From NCBI GenBank assembly GCA_030765805.1, contig JAVCDH010000084.1, positions 3,961 through 67,960 of the forward strand: a stretch of DNA of 64,000 nucleotides. Reading direction: 5' to 3'. Position 1 is the first letter of the stretch; each line of letters opens with the position of its first letter. The notes under the pieces are model-generated. The model ran no database searches. It saw only the letters and a list, made by a program, of their open reading frames with translations, and had not been told where the DNA came from. The stretch is from Candidatus Euphemobacter frigidus. Lineage in GTDB: Bacteria; Auribacterota; Erginobacteria; Erginobacterales; Erginobacteraceae. The position numbers and the translations under genes are program-made. Positions 2,875 through 37,776 of this stretch are shown here, piece after piece.

Positions 2875-4467
2875 TTATTTCCCGGCCTCCCACTCCGACT
2901 TGTACTGGTCGAGGAGGGCGCTGATGCCCTTGCCGATGTTCTCGTAATCCGGCTTGAAGAGGTTGGCCAGGGAGACCCGGACCGACATCTCGGGGGCGTC
3001 GAATCCTCCCCCGTCCATCAGGACGATCCCTTTCTCTTCCGCCAACCGCCAGACAAAGTCGATCGGCTCATGGGCGGTCTCCATCCACTTGCCGAACTCA
3101 TCCCCGTAGCGTTCCCGGGCCAGCTTGCGGATATCGATCGTGGTATAGTAACAGGCATAGAAGGGCAGCTCGGGTCCTTCAGTCCCCAGCGCTTTATAGA
3201 GGGTCTCATAGCGTTCATGGACGATATCCTGCATCTCTTTCTTGTAAAGATGATAATCGATGTCCAGGAGTTCATGGAGAGAGAAGAGAACCATCATAAC
3301 CTGCTGGGGAGTGGAGAGACCGGCAGTATGGTTGAGGGCGACCGCCCGGCTGTCAGCCACCAGCCGGTCAATCAGTTTAATGCCGGCCGGATCGGTCGAG
3401 ATCGTCTTGTATCGCTCATAGAGCTCCTGCTTCTTGGCCTCGGGCAGCTCGGCGATCATCTTATCCATGACATTGTCTTCATAGATTCCGATCACCCCGA
3501 GTCTCCAACCGGTGGCTCCGAAGTACTTGGAATAAGAGTAAACCAGGATGGTGTTCTTGGGAGCGATGGCGACGAGTGATTTGAAGCCATTGACAAAGGT
3601 TCCGTAAACATCATCGGTAAGAATGATCAGGTCCTTCCGCTCGTTCTTGACCAGGTCGGCGATCTTGTCCAGGGATTCTTTGGCCATGCTGACAGAGGTG
3701 GGGTTGGATGGATTGACCAGGAAGAAGGCTTTAATGGCCGGGTCGGCCAGTTTTTCCAGCTCCGCTGCCGGGTACTGCCAATTCTTGTCCTCATCCTGCT
3801 CAACCTCGATTTCGACAAGTTGATAGTCATTCAGGACCGGGATCTCTATGTAGGGGGTGAAGATTGGAGTTCCTATTGCGATCTTGTCCCCGGGGTGGAT
3901 CAGCCCATTCTCCTTGAGCGTGTTGAAGATATACGTCATGGCGGCGGTTCCGCCTTCGGTCACGAAGAGGTCCATCGTCCCTTCCGGGGGATCGTTGTCG
4001 CACATGGTCAAATCAAGATAGGCCCGGATGATCTTCTGGGTGTTATCCAAAACTCTGTCCGGGACCGGGTAGTGGTCGCCCAGAATACCATCCACCATCT
4101 CGCCGATATAGGAGTCGCCGTCCAGACCGAGTTTTTCGGTCACGAACTTGTAACCATCCTCCAGTAGCTGCGTTCCCCGCTGTTCGGCGTGGATTCGACA
4201 GAAACCCAGAAAGCGTTCGCCCATCCCTTTGGAGTCCGGGGCGCCGGAGATTCCGGGACGGCTCATGACCCGGTGCGATTCTTCGATGGCGAAGGTTATG
4301 AGGATGGAGTAGGCCAGCCGGGGGAAGACCGCTACCCAATTCGGGTTGCCCCGCCCGGCGTTGAGCATCATCTTAATCCGGGGACTCTCCGCCATTGCGA
4401 TCAGCTGGTCTTTTAGTTCAAAGGGACTCAAAGCCTCGTATTTTTTTTCAATCTTTGCTTCGTCCAT
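2875..4467 (-). CDS. asdA: Aspartate 4-decarboxylase (AsdA/AspD, PLP-dependent aminotransferase class I fold)
   Basis: The ~530 aa protein carries the PLP-lysine motif SYSKYFGATGWRLG and an N-terminus KYEALSPFELKD, both typical of AsdA. I chose the start at the ATG at 4467 because GGGAGGGG lies 8 nt upstream. The ORF track begins earlier, at 4515. Confidence 0.75.
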   Translation of the reverse strand: MDEAKIEKKYEALSPFELKDQLIAMAESPRIKMMLNAGRGNPNWVAVFPRLAYSILITFAIEESHRVMSRPGISGAPDSKGMGERFLGFCRIHAEQRGTQLLEDGYKFVTEKLGLDGDSYIGEMVDGILGDHYPVPDRVLDNTQKIIRAYLDLTMCDNDPPEGTMDLFVTEGGTAAMTYIFNTLKENGLIHPGDKIAIGTPIFTPYIEIPVLNDYQLVEIEVEQDEDKNWQYPAAELEKLADPAIKAFFLVNPSNPTSVSMAKESLDKIADLVKNERKDLIILTDDVYGTFVNGFKSLVAIAPKNTILVYSYSKYFGATGWRLGVIGIYEDNVMDKMIAELPEAKKQELYERYKTISTDPAGIKLIDRLVADSRAVALNHTAGLSTPQQVMMVLFSLHELLDIDYHLYKKEMQDIVHERYETLYKALGTEGPELPFYACYYTTIDIRKLARERYGDEFGKWMETAHEPIDFVWRLAEEKGIVLMDGGGFDAPEMSVRVSLANLFKPDYENIGKGISALLDQYKSEWEAGK

Positions 4468-4521
4468 ATCTATTCCCCTCCCTGGGTTAGAGTTAGGTGG
4501 TTTCCGGATGATCAATCAATA

Positions 4522-4538: not shown

Positions 4539-4739
4539 ATACAGCAACAGACATACCGGGAACAATCTCATTGACGAAAACCTCCCTTTCGAAAGTTGGC
4601 GGCGCAATAACCACGTTGACCCGGTAGCTGACTATTCCCCGCCTGCTGACGCGGGGGACCCTGGAGCTTTGCGTCCCACCCTTACGGATGGTTTGCCTTT
4701 ATCTATGATTTGATTATAATAGATTAAATAAAATCAGAT

Positions 4740-29552: not shown

Positions 29553-30398
29553 CTATTTCTGACAATGGGGACAGAAATGGGCGGTCCGGCCGCCCAGCTT
29601 GACGGTCTCGATGATCGCCCCGCAACGCGGGCATCGCTCCCCTTTTCGCTGGTAGACGTTGAGCCGGGCCTGGAATCTCCCCGGCTCCCCCTTACTGTCG
29701 ACATACCGGCGGTCGGCGGCAGTGGTACCATGGAGGTTAATAGCTTCCCTCAGAACCTCCCGGATACCCTGAAAGAGCCTCTCGATCTCCCTCCCGGTCA
29801 AGCCGGAGCTTCTTCTCCGAGGATGAATCCCGGCCCGGAAGAGCGCTTCATCAGTATAGATGTTCCCCAGCCCAGCCACAATCTTCTGGTCAAGGAGAAC
29901 CGTCTTGATCACCGAGCGGCTTTTCTTCAGGCTCCGCCCCAGGACCTCCGGGGTAAAGCTCTTCAGCAGGGGTTCGGGCCCCAATGAGAACGGGTCAATC
30001 GTGGTATGGCCTTCTTTCTTCGAAAAGAGATAGACTTCACCGAACTTGCGCGGATCGATGAGACAGAGTCGTCCCGCGGCGGCGATCTTCAAGATTAAGC
30101 GGGTGTAAGGCGGGGCAACGCTTCGGTCCGGGAGAAGAAGGAGCTGGCCGCTCATTCCCAGGTGGATAATCAGGATCTCATTCGTATCCAGGTGGAGAAG
30201 GAGGTACTTGGCGCGTCTTTTCAGCGTAATGATTCTCCGGCCGGTCAACTTCCGAATAAAACTTCGTTTCGATGGATAACGCCGGAGAAGACGACTCCCT
30301 CTCGAATCGTCAGGGATAATGACACGACGAATTACTTTCCCCCGGAGCCGGGGTAGCAATCCTCTCTTTATGGTCTCGACTTCAGGTAACTCAGGCAT
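29553..30398 (-). CDS. mutM: Formamidopyrimidine-DNA glycosylase (Fpg/MutM)
   Basis: It has the catalytic N-terminus MPELPEVE and a C-terminal zinc finger (CPRCG...CPHC). The ORF track begins at an upstream TTG. Confidence 0.9.
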   Translation of the reverse strand: MPELPEVETIKRGLLPRLRGKVIRRVIIPDDSRGSRLLRRYPSKRSFIRKLTGRRIITLKRRAKYLLLHLDTNEILIIHLGMSGQLLLLPDRSVAPPYTRLILKIAAAGRLCLIDPRKFGEVYLFSKKEGHTTIDPFSLGPEPLLKSFTPEVLGRSLKKSRSVIKTVLLDQKIVAGLGNIYTDEALFRAGIHPRRRSSGLTGREIERLFQGIREVLREAINLHGTTAADRRYVDSKGEPGRFQARLNVYQRKGERCPRCGAIIETVKLGGRTAHFCPHCQK

Positions 30399-30399
30399 C

Positions 30400-31764
30400 T
30401 TATGGAAGTGATCTTTCAATCAGCTCGGCCTGCTGGAAGCTGTTGCGGGCACTCTCCCAATCACCAAGATTCTTATAGGCGTGACCCAGGACCCGGTATC
30501 CGTTGATCTTATCCCTGACGAATTTTTCGGGCGTTCGCGAAAGACCGAGGTTTAGCATCTCAATAGCCCGAAGCGGATAGCCGTTGAAGATCTCGACCTC
30601 AGCCCGGGCAATCAGGACGCGGGAGTTGTTGGGGAACATCCGGGAAAGCTTCTCCAGCACCCGGGCGGCGGTGGTTATCTCATGCTGCTCGATCTTCGCT
30701 TCCGCCAGCTCGATGAAGGCCTGGTAAGCATCGGGAGCGTTGTGGAGGGAATCTGACAACAATCGGCATAATGAGGCATCTTCCCGGCTCCCCCCACGCT
30801 CCAGGGTAGCCCCCAGGAGACGATATCCGCGCTCCAGTTCCCAACGATAATAATAAGCGGTACCCCGGATCCCTGAACGGAGGGCTTCTTCCGCGGCAGC
30901 GAGGGCCCCCCGGTGGAGGGCGATCTCACCCCGAGCTAACGCGGCCCGGGAGTTGTGAGAATAAAGCTTCTCGAGCCTGGCCAGAATCCTCTTCGCCTTT
31001 TCCAGGTTGTCTTCTTCAATCGAGAACTCGCAGAGATTGATCAAGGCGGCGAAAGAGTTTGGTTTCTCAGTCAGGATGAGATCGATCTGGTGCTCGGCTC
31101 GGCGGTATTTCTTCTGGCGGGCATAGGCCAGAGCCAAGTTCAAGCGGAGATCATGATCTCCTTCTCCCAGAGTGAAGGCCTTCTCCAGCCAGCGGGCGGC
31201 TTGATTGAAGTTGTCGGCTTTGAAATAAAACCGTCCCAGATCCCTGCTGCGGTGATAGGTAACTCCGTATCTCTTAACCAACTTTTTCAGAGCTTTGATG
31301 GTCCCCGGGACGTCCATTGCTTCCTTGCCGACAAAGACGATTCTCTCCAGGCTCTTCTCTTTGAGAGGATCATCCTCATTGACCCGGTGATACATATTGA
31401 CCGCCTTAACCGGCCGGCCCGAACGGACGTAATGCCGTTCCAGTTTTTCATAGGCCAGAAAACTCTCCGGGAAGAGATTCTTGACCTGGCGCCATGTCTT
31501 GGCCGCCGCACCGGAAAAGCCTCCCGCCTGTTGAGCCCGGGCCAGATTTTCCAGAAGGCCCTGATCTTCAGGGAGCTTTTCGAGGCCGACTCGAAGCACT
31601 CGAGCAGCCGGACGATAATATTCCATCCCGATCAGAATCCGGGCGATCTGTTTATAGGCCGACGCACGGCGTGGTTCCTTCCGGAGATCGGCACGGAGTT
31701 TTGCGATTGCGGGAGTTACCGCCTTTTTCGGTAAACGCAGACTATTCATCATAAGCTCCTTCAT
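30400..31764 (-). CDS. Tetratricopeptide repeat protein
   Basis: Multiple TPR-like helical repeats are present. The gene ends 2 nt before fpg. Confidence 0.65.
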   Translation of the reverse strand: MKELMMNSLRLPKKAVTPAIAKLRADLRKEPRRASAYKQIARILIGMEYYRPAARVLRVGLEKLPEDQGLLENLARAQQAGGFSGAAAKTWRQVKNLFPESFLAYEKLERHYVRSGRPVKAVNMYHRVNEDDPLKEKSLERIVFVGKEAMDVPGTIKALKKLVKRYGVTYHRSRDLGRFYFKADNFNQAARWLEKAFTLGEGDHDLRLNLALAYARQKKYRRAEHQIDLILTEKPNSFAALINLCEFSIEEDNLEKAKRILARLEKLYSHNSRAALARGEIALHRGALAAAEEALRSGIRGTAYYYRWELERGYRLLGATLERGGSREDASLCRLLSDSLHNAPDAYQAFIELAEAKIEQHEITTAARVLEKLSRMFPNNSRVLIARAEVEIFNGYPLRAIEMLNLGLSRTPEKFVRDKINGYRVLGHAYKNLGDWESARNSFQQAELIERSLP

Positions 31765-33080
31765 TCCTGACTGGACGCGAGATCTTGGGCCTGGCTAAGA
31801 AACCGACGTGATTCTTCCTCCATCCCCTTCTCTTCATGCAGCTCGGCCATCAGCTCCAGACCCCGGATCTTGTCTTTGAGGTAACGGGGATTACTCTCCC
31901 GGCTGGCCCGTGCGGCGAAGGAGATGGCTTCGTCGATCATGCCCCGGATCCGAGCGATCTCCGCTTTCTTAACATAGGCCAGCGAGTTCATCGGGAAGCG
32001 AGCCAGCAGGCCATCCGCAACTTTTCCCGCCATCTCCAGATCACCGGATTCAATCATCTCATCGACCACCTCGATCGTAATCTTGAAGAAATCACCGCCG
32101 CCTTTAATCCTCTCGGCCATTAGATTATGATAACCAGCTTCCCGGGGATTTCCGATAGCCGAACAAGCACCGGCCAAGACCAGATGACCGAGGCTCAGTT
32201 CGTCAGTATAGTAAAACGGTGTGGAGGATGCGCCTTCACGGCACAGGGAGAGAGCTTCTTCGGGGTGTCCCTCCAGGAGCAGGATCCGAGCCCGGTTGAT
32301 TTTGACCCGGGAGTTTCCGGGAAAGCGGGCGTCAATCTTCTTTAAATGCTTTTCGGCTTCCGAGAAACGCCCGTCTTCGATATCCATCTCAGCCAGGTTG
32401 ATGTGCGAACCATACCACCCGGGCCGGTAACTCAAAATATCATCGAAGCGACGGCGAGCCTTCTTCCGCAAGCCGGCCTTCCGCTTGGATACTCCGATCA
32501 GCAGGGCAAGATCGGGATTCTGGGGCTTAAATTTCAGCGCCTTCTTATAATTAACAATGGCTTGCTTGAGATTGCCGGATTTCTCATAGAGTCGTCCCAA
32601 ATCCTTGAATCGCGAATAATCGGAGCCGAACTTTTCGATCAGCAGTCTCAGATAGTGACGAGCCGCTTTGAAATTGCCGAGGTCGCTCTCCAGCCGGACC
32701 AGGCGCTTTAAAGCCCGCTCCCGCTGGGGGTTCCCTTTCTCCACCCCTCTCAAAACTTTGATCATCTCTTTCTTCCGGCCCAGTCTGCGATAGATACGTT
32801 CCAGGCGTTCGTAGAGGACGGGTGTTTCCGGGTATTCCCGGATCAGCTTGTGGTACTCCCGGATCGCCCGTTGGGTGTCACCCGCATTCTCATGGAGCCG
32901 GGCGATCTGTTTTTTAATCTCTTTTGCTTCTTGAAATTGCTCGGGGGGTATTCTCTTCAAAGCCATCCTGAGAACCGCAATAACTTCACTATAACGATGC
33001 CGCTTATCGAGGAGACGCGCCAGCTTTCGATACCGGGAGATCCGGTCAGGATCTTCTGAGATATCTTTCCAGAGGCGCAT
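31761..33080 (-). CDS. Tetratricopeptide repeat protein (paralog of the downstream TPR gene)
   Basis: It shows TPR repeats. Start is likely the ATG at 33080 with GGGGAAGAG upstream. The ORF track extension to 33233 runs through the DnaA-box cluster and is unlikely to be coding. Confidence 0.6.
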   Translation of the reverse strand: MRLWKDISEDPDRISRYRKLARLLDKRHRYSEVIAVLRMALKRIPPEQFQEAKEIKKQIARLHENAGDTQRAIREYHKLIREYPETPVLYERLERIYRRLGRKKEMIKVLRGVEKGNPQRERALKRLVRLESDLGNFKAARHYLRLLIEKFGSDYSRFKDLGRLYEKSGNLKQAIVNYKKALKFKPQNPDLALLIGVSKRKAGLRKKARRRFDDILSYRPGWYGSHINLAEMDIEDGRFSEAEKHLKKIDARFPGNSRVKINRARILLLEGHPEEALSLCREGASSTPFYYTDELSLGHLVLAGACSAIGNPREAGYHNLMAERIKGGGDFFKITIEVVDEMIESGDLEMAGKVADGLLARFPMNSLAYVKKAEIARIRGMIDEAISFAARASRESNPRYLKDKIRGLELMAELHEEKGMEEESRRFLSQAQDLASSQE

Positions 33081-33191
33081 CTCTTCCCCTGGTTGAAGAT
33101 TGAGGCAGGACGGTATCTTACTCATGATGATTAATGATATTAAGAAAGAAAAGGGGGATATTGTAACGAATGGCAATGAGTTGTCAACAGG

Positions 33192-33297
33192 TTTTCCACA
33201 GCTTTCCACAGTTTTTCCACAACTTATCCACAATCAAGGGGGGATTTTCCCCTTGTAGAAAGTGGGTTTCGCAGCTGGTGGATAACGGGTGGATAAT
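33192..33297. promoter_or_regulatory. Cluster of six DnaA boxes: four direct (TTTTCCACA, CTTTCCACA, TTTTCCACA, TTATCCACA) and two inverted (GTGGATAAC, GTGGATAAT)
   Basis: The motifs are read directly from the sequence and match the DnaA box consensus TTATCCACA at 8-9 of 9 positions. An AT-rich stretch lies adjacent at 33121-33180. Confidence 0.55.
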
Positions 33298-33313
33298 CTA
33301 GGAGTCTGATCGC

Positions 33314-35141
33314 TTATTCTACCGTCACGGATTTAGCCAGGTTCCTCGGCTTGTCGATGTCGCAGTTCCGCTCCCGGGCGATATAATAAGCGAAGAGCTG
33401 GAGGGGGACAGTATTGAGGATCGGCTGGATAATATCGATCGAATGGGGGACATGGATGGCATGATCGACGTGGGAGTCGATATGATCGTCGCCTTCCACG
33501 GCGATCGCCAGAACCTTCCCATCGCGGGCCTTGATCTCCTGAATGTTGTTGACCATCTTGTCATAGGTGGAGTCCCGGGGAAGAATCGCGACGGTCGGGA
33601 ACTCGGGATCGATCAGGGAGATCGGGCCGTGCTTCATCTCTCCAGCCGCGTAGCCCTCCGCGTGAAGGTAGGAGATCTCTTTCAGCTTGAGGGCCCCTTC
33701 CATGGCGATGGGAAAATTGAAGAGCCGCCCAATAAAGAGGAAATTATTGTACCGGGCATACTTCCGGGCGATCTCCTCGATCCGATCGGCCTTCTTCAGT
33801 ATCTTCCGAATCTGACCGGGGAGTTCTTTAAGGGCCCGGGTAATGAAGAGACCTTCGGTAAGAGAGAGCCGCTGGTAACGCCCGATCAACAGCGCCATCA
33901 GGGTTAATATCACGCACTGGGAGATGAAGACCTTGGTCGAGGCCACGCCGATCTCCGGACCGGCGTGATTATAGACGCCGGCGTCGGTCTCCTGGGCAAT
34001 CGTCGAGCCGACCACGTTGACCAGCCCCAGGCAGAGGGCCCCCTTCCGGCGCGCCTCCCGGACGGCGGCAACGGTGTCGGCGGTCTCCCCGGACTGAGAG
34101 ATGGCGAGAACGGCCATCTTCTCATTGAGCCGCAGGGAACCGATAACGGAACTCGGAGGCGTACTCGACCTCGACGCTGAGATCGGTCAGTTTCTCGAAT
34201 ATGTACCGGGCCAGGAGTCCGGCGTAATAGGAGGTCCCGCAGGAGATGAAGTGAATTTTTTCCATTGACTTCAGTAGGTCCAGCACCCCTTCCAGGCCGC
34301 CCAGCCGCGAAACTCCTTCTCCCTCCAGGATCCTTCCCCGAAGGGCGTTCTTTACCGTTTCGGGCTGCTCGAATATCTCCTTGAGCATGAAATGCTCAAA
34401 ACCCTTCTTGTCGGCCGCGCCCTGGTCCCACTCTATCGTCTCCGTCTCCCGGACCACCTCCCGGTCCTGGAAATCGCTGATCGAGTATTCGGCGCTGTTC
34501 AGAACGGCCAGCTCGTTGTCCTTGAGGTGGATCACCTTGTTAGTGTAGCGGATCAGCGCGTTGATATCGGAAGCGGCCAGGTATTCATTCCGGCCGATCC
34601 CCAGGATGAGCGGGGAACCCCGCCGGGCCAAAACTATCTTACCCGGTGAATCCCGATGAAAGAGGGCGATGCCGAATGTGCCCTGGACGCGGCTCAGTGC
34701 CTTCTTGACCGCCCCCTCCAAATCGCCGTCGTAGTACTCTTCGATCAGGTGGACCAGGACCTCGGTATCGGTCTGGGAGGTGAAGGTATGTCCCTTCTCT
34801 TCCAGTTCTTCCTTCAGGGAGAGATAGTTCTCGATAATACCGTTATGGACCAGGAAGATCTTATCGTTCTCATCGGTGTGGGGATGCGCGTTAGCCACAG
34901 TGGGGCGCCCGTGGGTGGCCCAGCGGGTATGGGCGATCCCCAGCTTTCCCCGGGGATGAAGCTCCCGGATTTTTTCTTCCAGGCAACTGACCTTCCCCAC
35001 TTCTTTGATCAGGCAGGTCTCGCTGCCGTCGGTAACGGCGAGACCGGCCGAATCATAGCCGCGGTATTCCAATCGCTTCAATCCTTCCAGGAGGATCGGG
35101 GTCGCTTCCTGTTTCCCGATATAACAGACGATGCCGCACAT
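33314..35141 (-). pseudogene. glmS: Glutamine--fructose-6-phosphate aminotransferase GlmS, interrupted by a single-nucleotide frameshift near 34117-34125
   Basis: The N-terminal MCGIVCY glutaminase domain (ORF 34122..35189) and the C-terminal SIS domains ending AKSVTVE (ORF 33314..34117) are in different frames. A +1 frame restores EFRYR...RLNEKMAVLAISQSGETADT. Start is the ATG at 35141 with AGGAAGG upstream. Confidence 0.8.
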
Positions 35142-35194: not shown

Positions 35195-37066
35195 ATGACA
35201 GAGAACCACCCTTTAAAATACGACGTTGTTCTTGTCGGCGGAGGTCACGCCGGGATTGAAGCTGCCCTGGCCGCCGCCCGCCTGAACTGTTCCACTCTCC
35301 TCATCACCATCAATCTGGACCGGATCGGGAAGCTCTCCTGCAACCCGGCGATCGGGGGGCTCGGGAAAGGGCAACTGGTCAAGGAACTCGACGCCCTGGG
35401 GGGAGAGATGGCCCGCGCCGCCGATGAATGCGCCCTTCAATACCGGCGGCTGAATACTCGCAAAGGACCCGCGGTTCAGGCCACCCGGGTCCAGGTCGAT
35501 CGTCACCGGTACGGGCTCTCAATGAAGCGGCGAGTGGAAGCCACCCCCGGTCTCCACCTCCGTCAGGGCCGGGTAGAAGAGATTATTCTCCGGGATGGGC
35601 GGGTTCTAGGTGTAGAGACCGCTCTGGGCGAGTTCTTCCGCGCGGACCGTGTCATTCTCGCTCCCGGGACATTTCTGAACGGTCTGATCCACGTGGGACT
35701 CCGGCATTTCCCCGGGGGCCGGATGGGCGATCCCGAAGCCTCCGGCCTCCCCGCTTCTCTGAGAAAGCTCGGCTTCACCCTAGGGCGGTTCAAGACCGGG
35801 ACCTGCCCCCGCCTGGACGGCCGGACCATTGATCTCAGCCGCCTGGAAATCCAGGAAGGTGACGTCGAGCCGACCCCATTTTCGTTCTCTTCTCCACCCA
35901 TCACCATAAAACAGATCCCCTGTTACATTACCCGAACCAACCGGAAGACTCATGAGATTATCCGGAGCGGGCTTTCCCGTTCCCCCCTCTTCTCCGGAAT
36001 CATAAAAGGGCACGGGGTCCGTTATTGCCCGAGCATCGAGGATAAAGTCGTCAAGTTCGCAGGTAAGGATCACCACCACATCTTCCTGGAACCGGAAGGA
36101 AGGGATACCAACGAGTACTATCCCAATGGAATCTCCACCAGTCTCCCGATCGATATCCAGATTGAGATGATCCATAGCATCGAAGGGCTTTCGAGAGCCG
36201 AGATGGTCCGTCCCGGCTATGGGATCGAGCACGACTATGTCCATCCCACCCAGCTGAAGCCGACCCTGGAAAGTAAGCTGGTCGGGGGGCTCTACCTGGC
36301 CGGACAGATAAACGGAACGACCGGTTACGAGGAGGCCGCCGTCCAGGGACTGATCGCGGGGATCAACGCCGCCCGGTCCATTCGGGGGGAGGAACCCTTC
36401 CTCCTCTCCCGCGGCGAGGCATATATCGGGGTCCTCATCGACGACCTGGTAACCAAAGGGACCGATGAACCTTACCGAATCTTCACCTCCCGGGCGGAGT
36501 TCCGGCTCAGGCTTCGGGAGGATAACGCCGATCTCCGCCTCCGGGAGAGGGGATACCGCCTCGGCCTGGTAAAGAAATCGGAATGGGAAGAGACCCGGAG
36601 AAAAGAGCGCTCGATAGAGAAAGCGCTGAAGATCTTGTCCACGGTAAAGCTGAAACCAACCGCGTCGGTAAACCGGAAACTGGCCGGTGTTGCCGGCAGC
36701 CCGATTCGCAAGACAATCACCCTGAAGGAGATTCTGCGGCGGCCTGAGATCAGTTTCCGGGACCTGATCATCTTCGAACCGGTCTTAAGAGAGTTTAATC
36801 CGGAAGTAAAAAAACAGGTGGAGATCATAGTCAAGTACGAGGGTTTCCTATCACGGCAGGAAACGGATATCGCCCGGCTGAAGCACCTGGAGGAGGCGGC
36901 AATCCCTTCCAGGTTTGATTATTCTCTGGTGTCCGGGCTTAAAACTGAGGTCCGGGAGAAATTAGCCCGCTTCCAACCATTCAATCTGGGACAGGCTTCC
37001 CGGATACCGGGGATCACGCCGGCGGCAATATCAATACTGATGATTTACCTTAAAAAACACCGCTGA
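35195..37066 (+). CDS. mnmG: tRNA uridine 5-carboxymethylaminomethyl modification enzyme MnmG (GidA)
   Basis: It has an FAD-binding N-terminus [15 protein letters not shown] and the full-length 623 aa GidA architecture. Confidence 0.95.
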
Positions 37067-37086: not shown

Positions 37087-37776
37087 ATGACACTCGGAGA
37101 ATCACACTACCAGGAGCTCAAAGGTCACGCGTTCGAACTGGGTTTCTCCCTCTTCGGCGTAGCCGAGCTTCCGGATTTGGAAGAACTGGCCTTCGATCTA
37201 TCTCCCGGCACCGTCCGGAACCTGACAACCGGGATAGCGCTGGCCGTTCGCCTCTCCAACGCGGTGCTGGAAGATATCACGGACCACCCCACCCGGCTCT
37301 ACCTCCACCACTACCGCCAGGCCAACTACTTCCTGGATCGGAATGCCTTTGAACTGGCCCGGCGGATCGAAGAGATGGGAGGACGGGCGCTGGCGATCGC
37401 CGCTTCCCAGACCATCGACTGGGTGAACCAGAGAGGACATCTTTCGCATATAGAGGTCGCCAGGCGCGCGGGCCTGGGCTGGATCGGGAGAAATAACCTC
37501 CTGGTCACCCCCAAGTGGGGCGCCCGGGTCCGGCTGGTGACGATTCTGACCGACCTCTCGCTCCCTCCCGGCTCCCCCCTGGCCCGGGATTGTGGAGACT
37601 GCCGGAAGTGTCTCCCGGTCTGCCCGGCCCAGGCCATATCTGAAGAGCCGGGAAAGTTCAACCACCGAAAATGCTTTGAGCAGCTCAGTTTCTTCAAAAA
37701 GAAACTGAATCTCGGCCACCACATCTGCGGGGTCTGCGTCAAGGCCTGCTATCCAGACAGTAGCAATGGGATTTAG
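37087..37776 (+). CDS. 4Fe-4S cluster protein, short QueG-like (epoxyqueuosine reductase family, DUF1730 + Fer4)
   Basis: It contains GWIGRNNLLVTPKWG followed by CxxCxxCxxxCP. At 229 aa it is shorter than canonical QueG. Confidence 0.45.
   Translation: MTLGESHYQELKGHAFELGFSLFGVAELPDLEELAFDLSPGTVRNLTTGIALAVRLSNAVLEDITDHPTRLYLHHYRQANYFLDRNAFELARRIEEMGGRALAIAASQTIDWVNQRGHLSHIEVARRAGLGWIGRNNLLVTPKWGARVRLVTILTDLSLPPGSPLARDCGDCRKCLPVCPAQAISEEPGKFNHRKCFEQLSFFKKKLNLGHHICGVCVKACYPDSSNGI

Follow-up and report, generated by a model that had tools for sequence, protein, structure and literature searches.

The window examined in this work, meaning the whole stretch of DNA that was analysed, is 64 kb long and comes from Candidatus Euphemobacter frigidus, a member of Ca. 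Auribacterota in the PVC group, described as a MAG species from Ace Lake, Antarctica (PMC9324843). At the site under study all genes lie on the minus strand. Two TPR genes and fpg/mutM form an operon, glmS lies upstream of it, and the intergenic region of 188 bp between glmS and TPR1 contains an array of DnaA boxes (Table 1). The first-pass annotation had placed these boxes between a TPR gene and glmS and 2 kb from mnmG/gidA, and this location was confirmed; mnmG is divergent from glmS, at 35195.

Neither TPR protein could be assigned to a specific family by NCBIfam, every match being far below the curated cut-offs. Homologues of TPR1 are confined to Auribacterota-like lineages, and wherever a locus extends far enough, fpg comes after the TPR pair. 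TPR1 truly begins with the ATG at 33125; translation from there yields the N-terminus MxKIPxxLNLQPGEE common to all homologues. The start at 33233 of a 490-aa ORF, earlier suspected to be a spurious extension into the motif array, is indeed wrong. A 44-aa antisense ORF across the array, called by one source, was rejected as an artefact of the repeats. The true start of fpg/mutM is probably about 7 codons inside its ORF.

In the window, glmS is split by a 1-nt frameshift near 34118-34130 into ORFs running from 35141 to 34122 and from 34117 to 33314. The break falls between the EFRYR and LNEK...SQSGETADT segments, and relatives encode one intact protein of 608 aa; the frameshift is either an assembly error or the mark of a pseudogene. 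The gene past mnmG (37087-37776, plus strand) encodes a 229-aa Fer4_16 protein with partial similarity, below cut-off, to QueG/reductive-dehalogenase iron-sulfur domains, and in relatives it is followed by hisH and hisF. Because this gene is not rsmG/gidB, the classical gidA-gidB-parAB origin neighbourhood is absent.

Table 1. Features of the glmS-TPR1 intergenic region and the adjoining genes (window coordinates).
Feature	Position	Strand	Description
fpg/mutM, third operon gene	29553..30419	-	formamidopyrimidine-DNA glycosylase; above NCBIfam equivalog cut-offs
TPR2, second operon gene	30400..31764	-	454 aa; full-length TPR paralogue, 27% identical to TPR1
TPR1, first operon gene	31761..33125	-	454 aa; lineage-specific family; no NCBIfam model at cut-off
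C-run/T-run element	33149..33157	-	CCCCCTTTT; conserved; at or near the predicted transcription start
-10 hexamer	33160..33165	-	TACAAT; 16-nt spacer from -35
In-register pseudo-box	33181..33189	-	TGTTGACAA on minus, TTGTCAACA on plus; includes the -35 hexamer TTGACA (33187 to 33182)
Proximal box 4	33192..33200	-	TGTGGAAAA on minus, TTTTCCACA on plus; end 2 bp ahead of the TG preceding -35
Proximal box 3	33202..33210	-	TGTGGAAAG on minus, CTTTCCACA on plus; 2 mismatches; weakest site in all lineages
Proximal box 2	33213..33221	-	TGTGGAAAA on minus, TTTTCCACA on plus; 11 bp from box 1
Proximal box 1	33224..33232	-	TGTGGATAA on minus, TTATCCACA on plus; perfect DnaA-box consensus; outermost; presumed high-affinity anchor
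Hairpin	33235..33255		CAAGGGG-loop-CCCCTTG; between the arrays; weak terminator candidate for glmS; not conserved in relatives
Distal array, two boxes	33277-33285 and 33288-33296	-	both TTATCCACC; inverted relative to the proximal array
glmS, upstream co-directional gene	33314..35141	-	MCGI start at about 35141; outside the element

Structure of the array and its promoter

Six DnaA boxes and one pseudo-box are contained in 116 bp. All motifs of the dense six-box cluster reported in the first-pass annotation were recovered. The four direct boxes stood exactly where they had been placed, including the perfect consensus TTATCCACA at 33224-33232, while the two inverted boxes, given as GTGGATAAC at 33278 and GTGGATAAT at 33289, had been set one base off register. 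Such a density does not arise by chance. Boxes with no more than one mismatch number 19 in the 64-kb window, and 5 of these are inside the 105-bp array stretch; in 300 dinucleotide-preserving shuffles, the largest cluster per 110 bp was 2 boxes (41 shuffles) or 1 (259 shuffles). The window contains no second DnaA-box cluster, and in the related loci, too, none was found apart from the counterpart of this array.

Read on the minus strand, the proximal boxes follow each other as TGTGGATAA gt TGTGGAAAA ac TGTGGAAAG c TGTGGAAAA cc, then TGTTGACA, and the distal pair is TTATCCACC, cg, TTATCCACC. Start-to-start spacing is 10-11 bp inside each array, and the proximal register is about 10.75 bp. The distal array starts 18 nt past the glmS stop codon. 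About 50 bp of non-conserved DNA, including the hairpin, separates the two arrays, and no hairpin was found at the equivalent place in one relative (L004). An iteron or plasmid-origin reading was also tried and discarded: the repeat unit is the 9-mer DnaA box, not an iteron of 17-22 bp, and no rep gene is nearby.

The proximal boxes run in register into TGTTGACA, which holds the -35 element, and are followed by a spacer of 16 nt, the -10 hexamer TACAAT, the dinucleotide at, the element CCCCCTTTT, a short leader and ATG. In a consensus scan, this promoter, TTGACA-16-TACAAT, matched at 11 of 12 positions and was located directly past box 4. The consensus of the DnaA box is TTWTNCACA (PMC13438810, PMC8203912). 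Sites fitting it are next to the promoter, boxes 1-4 ending 2 bp ahead of TG-TTGACA. The pseudo-box TGTTGACAA is a seventh site, overlooked in the first-pass annotation, which continues the register of the four proximal boxes and differs at one position from the degenerate box of the family, TGTGGA[T/A/C]AA.

A short C/T run is kept in almost every lineage 2-4 nt past the -10, as CCCCCTTTT(T) or CCCCACCTTTATAG, and it accompanies neither of the other promoter-like sites of the window. An Rfam scan of 32950-33450 returned no match, so the run does not correspond to any known RNA element. It may represent a GC-rich discriminator or the initial transcribed sequence; the model proposed below leaves it unexplained.

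Conservation among related lineages

Homologues of TPR1 form a tight, lineage-restricted family of 32 proteins at 48-100% identity, followed by a gap to generic TPR matches. Related loci were gathered by exact-protein look-up and by a metagenome scan with a TPR alignment, the loci from the latter being chosen blind to the boxes. Fourteen distinct relatives were obtained (L004, L005, L007, L009-L015, L019-L021 and L026), and the remaining matching loci were duplicates. The same layout was found upstream of TPR1 in all 14, in which TPR identity ranged from 39 to 71%, and boxes and promoter were kept jointly in each of them, as in a phylogenetic footprint. Absence of the box array from related genomes, which the first-pass annotation had named as a refuting result, was thus not observed (layout present in 14/14).

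A column-wise alignment of 11 lineages, anchored on the -35, showed conservation in the four 9-mers, TGTTGACA, TAnAAT and the C/T run. Almost no information was present in the DNA upstream of box 1, in the 2-bp spacers or in the promoter spacer of 16-17 nt. At the position of box 1, the perfect 9-mer occurs in 6 of the 11 lineages, and a one-mismatch variant in 4 of the 5 others; box 2 has the consensus TGTGGA[A/C]AA. The element TGTTGACA is invariant in 11/11 lineages, including the TG, which the -35 hexamer itself does not require. TAnAAT is retained at a spacing of 16-17 nt with a variable spacer sequence, and the leader differs in length between lineages. Even where the middle boxes have decayed (L011, L012 and L026), the register to the -35 is retained. 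The order in L011 and L012 is box, box, AT-rich 9-mer, -35 site, and in L026 it is box, box, nothing, box, -35 site.

The gene upstream of the operon changes among these loci. It is glmS in the window, L007 and L012; thiF or thiS stands between glmS and TPR1 in L004, L005, L009 and L010, and the array is still with the operon. In L026 (39% identity), a divergent UDP-glucose dehydrogenase gene precedes the operon, neither glmS nor mnmG is in view, and the array is kept. The layout in all 14 relatives, its independence of the upstream gene and the lack of conservation in the spacers imply that the array is a cis-element of the TPR-TPR-fpg promoter. Control of glmS, one of the roles suggested earlier, is not supported, as the array lies beyond the stop codon of glmS and is retained at loci in which glmS is not the neighbouring gene.

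The window and 10 of the 14 relatives have the inverted distal array, which comprises 2-3 boxes (degenerate in L007) and always comes just past the stop codon of the upstream co-directional gene. Its distance from the proximal array varies from about 46 to 158 bp, without fixed phase. In L011, L012, L014 and L026 it is missing or unrecognisable, and it is thus regarded as auxiliary.

Short tandem or low-complexity repeats were also observed upstream of the arrays in several relatives, their sequences differing between lineages. Examples are GTTACGAGAG in three copies in L004 (9600-9650), CTTCAAA in three copies in L011 (140-175), GTTCGATGTTGGAA-like units in L013 (about 1090-1120) and ACACAGATTT in two copies in L026 (1480-1560).

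Four direct repeats that run in helical phase into a -35 also match the geometry of winged-helix sites. Response regulators of the OmpR/PhoB type classically bind direct repeats of 10-11 bp abutting the -35, and a non-DnaA factor of this kind might bind the repeats described here. We consider such a binder unlikely. The repeat consensus TGTGGA[T/A/C]AA agrees with the DnaA box TTWTNCACA at 9/9 positions; at least one perfect TTATCCACA is present in all 14 relatives except L007; and the variants TTTTCCACA and TTGTCCACA fit the degenerate positions of TTWTNCACA or differ by one base. The inverted distal array is built from the same 9-mer. Moreover, activator-dependent promoters normally have a poor -35, whereas the -35 here is the invariant consensus TTGACA. 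The locus therefore shares the 10-11-bp phase of an OmpR/PhoB operator, but not its weak -35.

Replication origin and DnaA-control locus as alternatives

Were the array the chromosomal oriC, DnaA would oligomerise on the opposed arrays, and the AT-rich stretch (33121-33180) would serve as the unwinding element. Seven dense sites in two opposed arrays with 2-bp spacing resemble the DnaA-assembly region of E. coli oriC, and mnmG/gidA is 2 kb away, a linkage that recurs in many relatives. The organisation of the window, however, is not that of an origin. Coding bases are 64% on the plus strand to the left of the site and 76% on the minus strand to the right, including the ribosomal-protein operon at 50-64 kb. 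Because the left side is mostly plus and the right side mostly minus, the genes converge on the site, the opposite of the origin pattern; the first-pass annotation had correctly drawn its doubt about an origin from the direction of the ribosomal-protein operon, which points toward the site. When GC3 skew is averaged across plus- and minus-strand genes, it comes to about +0.01 left of the site, to about -0.005 between 33 and 50 kb and to -0.09 between 50 and 64 kb; no negative-to-positive switch is seen, and the raw skew of the 64-kb window has no inflection at 33 kb. The window's 40 largest ORFs were scanned against Pfam, and neither dnaA nor dnaN was among them; about 4 kb beyond the left end of the window likewise contained no dnaA. 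The checks that had been suggested for a skew inflection and for dnaA/dnaN at this place thus came out negative in the 64-kb window and its 40 largest ORFs.

The AT-rich stretch pointed out in the first-pass annotation does exist, but it is modest and not conserved. Its AT content is 67%, a value equalled or exceeded by 2.75% of 60-bp windows, and 75-85% AT is reached at no fewer than 12 separate places in the window. The stretch comprises the -10, the leader and the start codon, and its counterpart is GC-rich in L009 and L010, i.e. there is no conserved DUE. A DnaA-trio-like triplet run was likewise absent from the array region in the window and the aligned relatives, so the search for a DUE or DnaA-trio beside the boxes yielded neither. 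The conserved positions are exactly the promoter hexamers at 16-17 nt spacing, not an unwinding element. In L026, furthermore, the array goes with the operon into a neighbourhood without glmS or mnmG, beside an unrelated gene, which makes the earlier argument from the gidA/glmS neighbourhood incidental.

In view of the convergent genes, the absence of a skew inflection, the absence of dnaA/dnaN from the screened ORFs and the lack of a conserved DUE, the origin reading, which had been kept as an oriC-like option in the first-pass annotation, is rejected. The site is almost certainly not the replication origin, and an oriC at this position would be very improbable. Origin predictors that use DnaA-box density and gidA proximity would mis-call the locus as oriC in these MAGs.

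The array might instead serve primarily to control DnaA itself, either by sequestering or inactivating it in the manner of datA or a DBC, or by reactivating it as DARS does. That 6-7 boxes form a conserved cluster away from any recognisable origin accords with such a role, and B. subtilis offers a precedent: deleting its six non-origin DnaA-box clusters advances initiation, and some of the clusters also regulate their neighbours (PMC3245932, PMC2533591). The present array, however, is register-locked to one promoter and moves with one operon, neither of which a pure sink would require, and six or seven sites provide only a small titration capacity. datA and DARS2 depend on IHF, and no IHF consensus WATCAANNNNTTR occurs in 33126-33313; its 4 matches in the window are all outside the intergenic region, although the use of IHF in this phylum may differ. 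As a primary role, DnaA control therefore appears to have a low probability. A datA- or DBC-like buffering role alongside operon control is compatible with the data, and the two are not exclusive, since some clusters of B. subtilis do both.

A putative DnaA operator of the TPR-TPR-fpg operon

As judged from the sequence, the array is probably a DnaA operator that forms part of the promoter region of the Ca. Euphemobacter frigidus TPR-TPR-fpg operon. Among the readings offered in the first-pass annotation, control of TPR-TPR-fpg is thus the part that gained support, and those of oriC and glmS control did not: the boxes are phase-locked to a conserved promoter and travel with the operon when the upstream gene changes. 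As a control region ahead of the operon promoter, the array would link the operon to the replication initiator rather than mark an origin.

DnaA can act as a repressor, an activator or a terminator, with the nrdAB and dnaA promoters as examples, and its high-affinity boxes bind both nucleotide forms of the protein while its low-affinity boxes bind only DnaA-ATP (PMC13438810, PMC8203912). At the present locus, the outer consensus box 1 would be bound by DnaA in either nucleotide state and serve as an anchor. DnaA-ATP would then fill the weaker, 2-bp-spaced sites cooperatively toward the promoter, as in the low-affinity arrays of E. coli oriC; weak boxes also depend on cooperative neighbours. 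Growing along one helical face, the resulting oligomer may reach the -35 and gate RNA polymerase, and occupancy of the -35 site would turn the promoter off. For the distal boxes, two roles are conceivable: a loop to the proximal array that stabilises the complex, or a barrier to transcription reading through from the upstream gene. Like any such cluster, the array would also hold some DnaA. The net effect, speculatively, would be a coupling of Fpg and the two uncharacterised cytoplasmic TPR proteins to the replication-initiation cycle.

If DnaA binds, repression at high DnaA-ATP is the mode we favour, and it has about an even chance of being correct. It is favoured because a promoter so close to consensus does not require an activator, and because the -35 is inside a box-like site. 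Activation from upstream of the -35 is a more tentative possibility. In L011 and L012, the two good boxes stop 15 bp short of the -35 on its upstream side, and an AT-rich in-register site lies in the interval; this geometry would suit activation (from about -50 to -72) or UP-element competition no less than occlusion.

A wider role is conceivable but rather doubtful, namely a DnaA-ATP sensor used throughout the phylum. The phased, graded operator would read the nucleotide state of DnaA, the lineage-specific TPR paralogues would be hitherto unrecognised regulators of DnaA or of the replication cycle and feed back on initiation, Fpg would be co-regulated so that base-excision nicks avoid the fork, and the array would double as a DBC-like buffer.

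The locus belongs to a known kind of element, the DnaA-regulated promoter or non-origin DnaA-box cluster; what is new is this locus itself. Its notable properties are the strict register to the -35 and the conservation of this arrangement across much of a candidate phylum. The geometry of the operator is unusually regular, consisting of an anchor box, weaker boxes spaced by 2 bp and a -35 in the same register, and it therefore yields a simple, testable prediction about the sensing of DnaA-ATP levels. The locus provides a comparatively supported example of putative DnaA action away from the origin in a candidate phylum without a cultured member, and it puts forward two uncharacterised TPR proteins, together with Fpg, as candidates for replication coupling in Auribacterota.

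Three described cases come nearest to this locus: oriCII of P. aeruginosa, the non-origin clusters of B. subtilis, and the dnaA and nrdAB promoters of E. coli; in its box grammar the array is like the low-affinity arrays of E. coli oriC. The oriCII/gidAB-parAB promoter of P. aeruginosa is a five-box, origin-like cluster beside gidA that the chromosome does not need for its replication; it is bound directly by DnaA and governs transcription of the operon next to it; the boxes precede the gidA promoter, and the fragment can replicate a plasmid (PMC13438810). The present array differs in probably serving the TPR-TPR-fpg operon 2 kb from mnmG, in being strictly phased into the -35, and in that its linkage to mnmG is dispensable (L026).

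The non-origin clusters of B. subtilis are likewise intergenic, with several boxes outside oriC, and act by cooperative DnaA binding, regulation of neighbours and buffering of initiation (PMC3245932, PMC2533591, PMC4447404). In the present array, by comparison, an 11-bp register is fixed to the -35 and kept down to 39% TPR identity. Box spacing in the clusters of B. subtilis is irregular.

The low-affinity R1-to-I2 and R4-to-C3 arrays of E. coli oriC resemble the present array in having an outer high-affinity anchor and weaker 9-mers of the same orientation 2 bp apart, and both loci possess two arrays of opposite orientation. Unlike E. coli oriC, the present locus lacks a DUE as well as the skew and gene-orientation signatures of an origin, and on the inner side its array leads into a promoter -35 instead of R2 or the origin's middle.

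In the dnaA and nrdAB promoters of E. coli, as in the present one, DnaA boxes overlap a sigma-70 promoter or lie upstream of it. Their output follows the DnaA-ATP level: that of dnaA is repressed, and nrdAB is activated at low DnaA-ATP and repressed at high (PMC8203912; PMC13438810). The present promoter has other target genes, and no inverted distal array is described for the E. coli pair. The boxes of the E. coli promoters are fewer and less regular.

Elsewhere in the window, a c-di-GMP-I riboswitch (RF01051) was detected at 4620-4707 on the minus strand, with 54.6 bits against a gathering score of 35, just upstream of a 546-aa aminotransferase-like ORF at 2875-4515.
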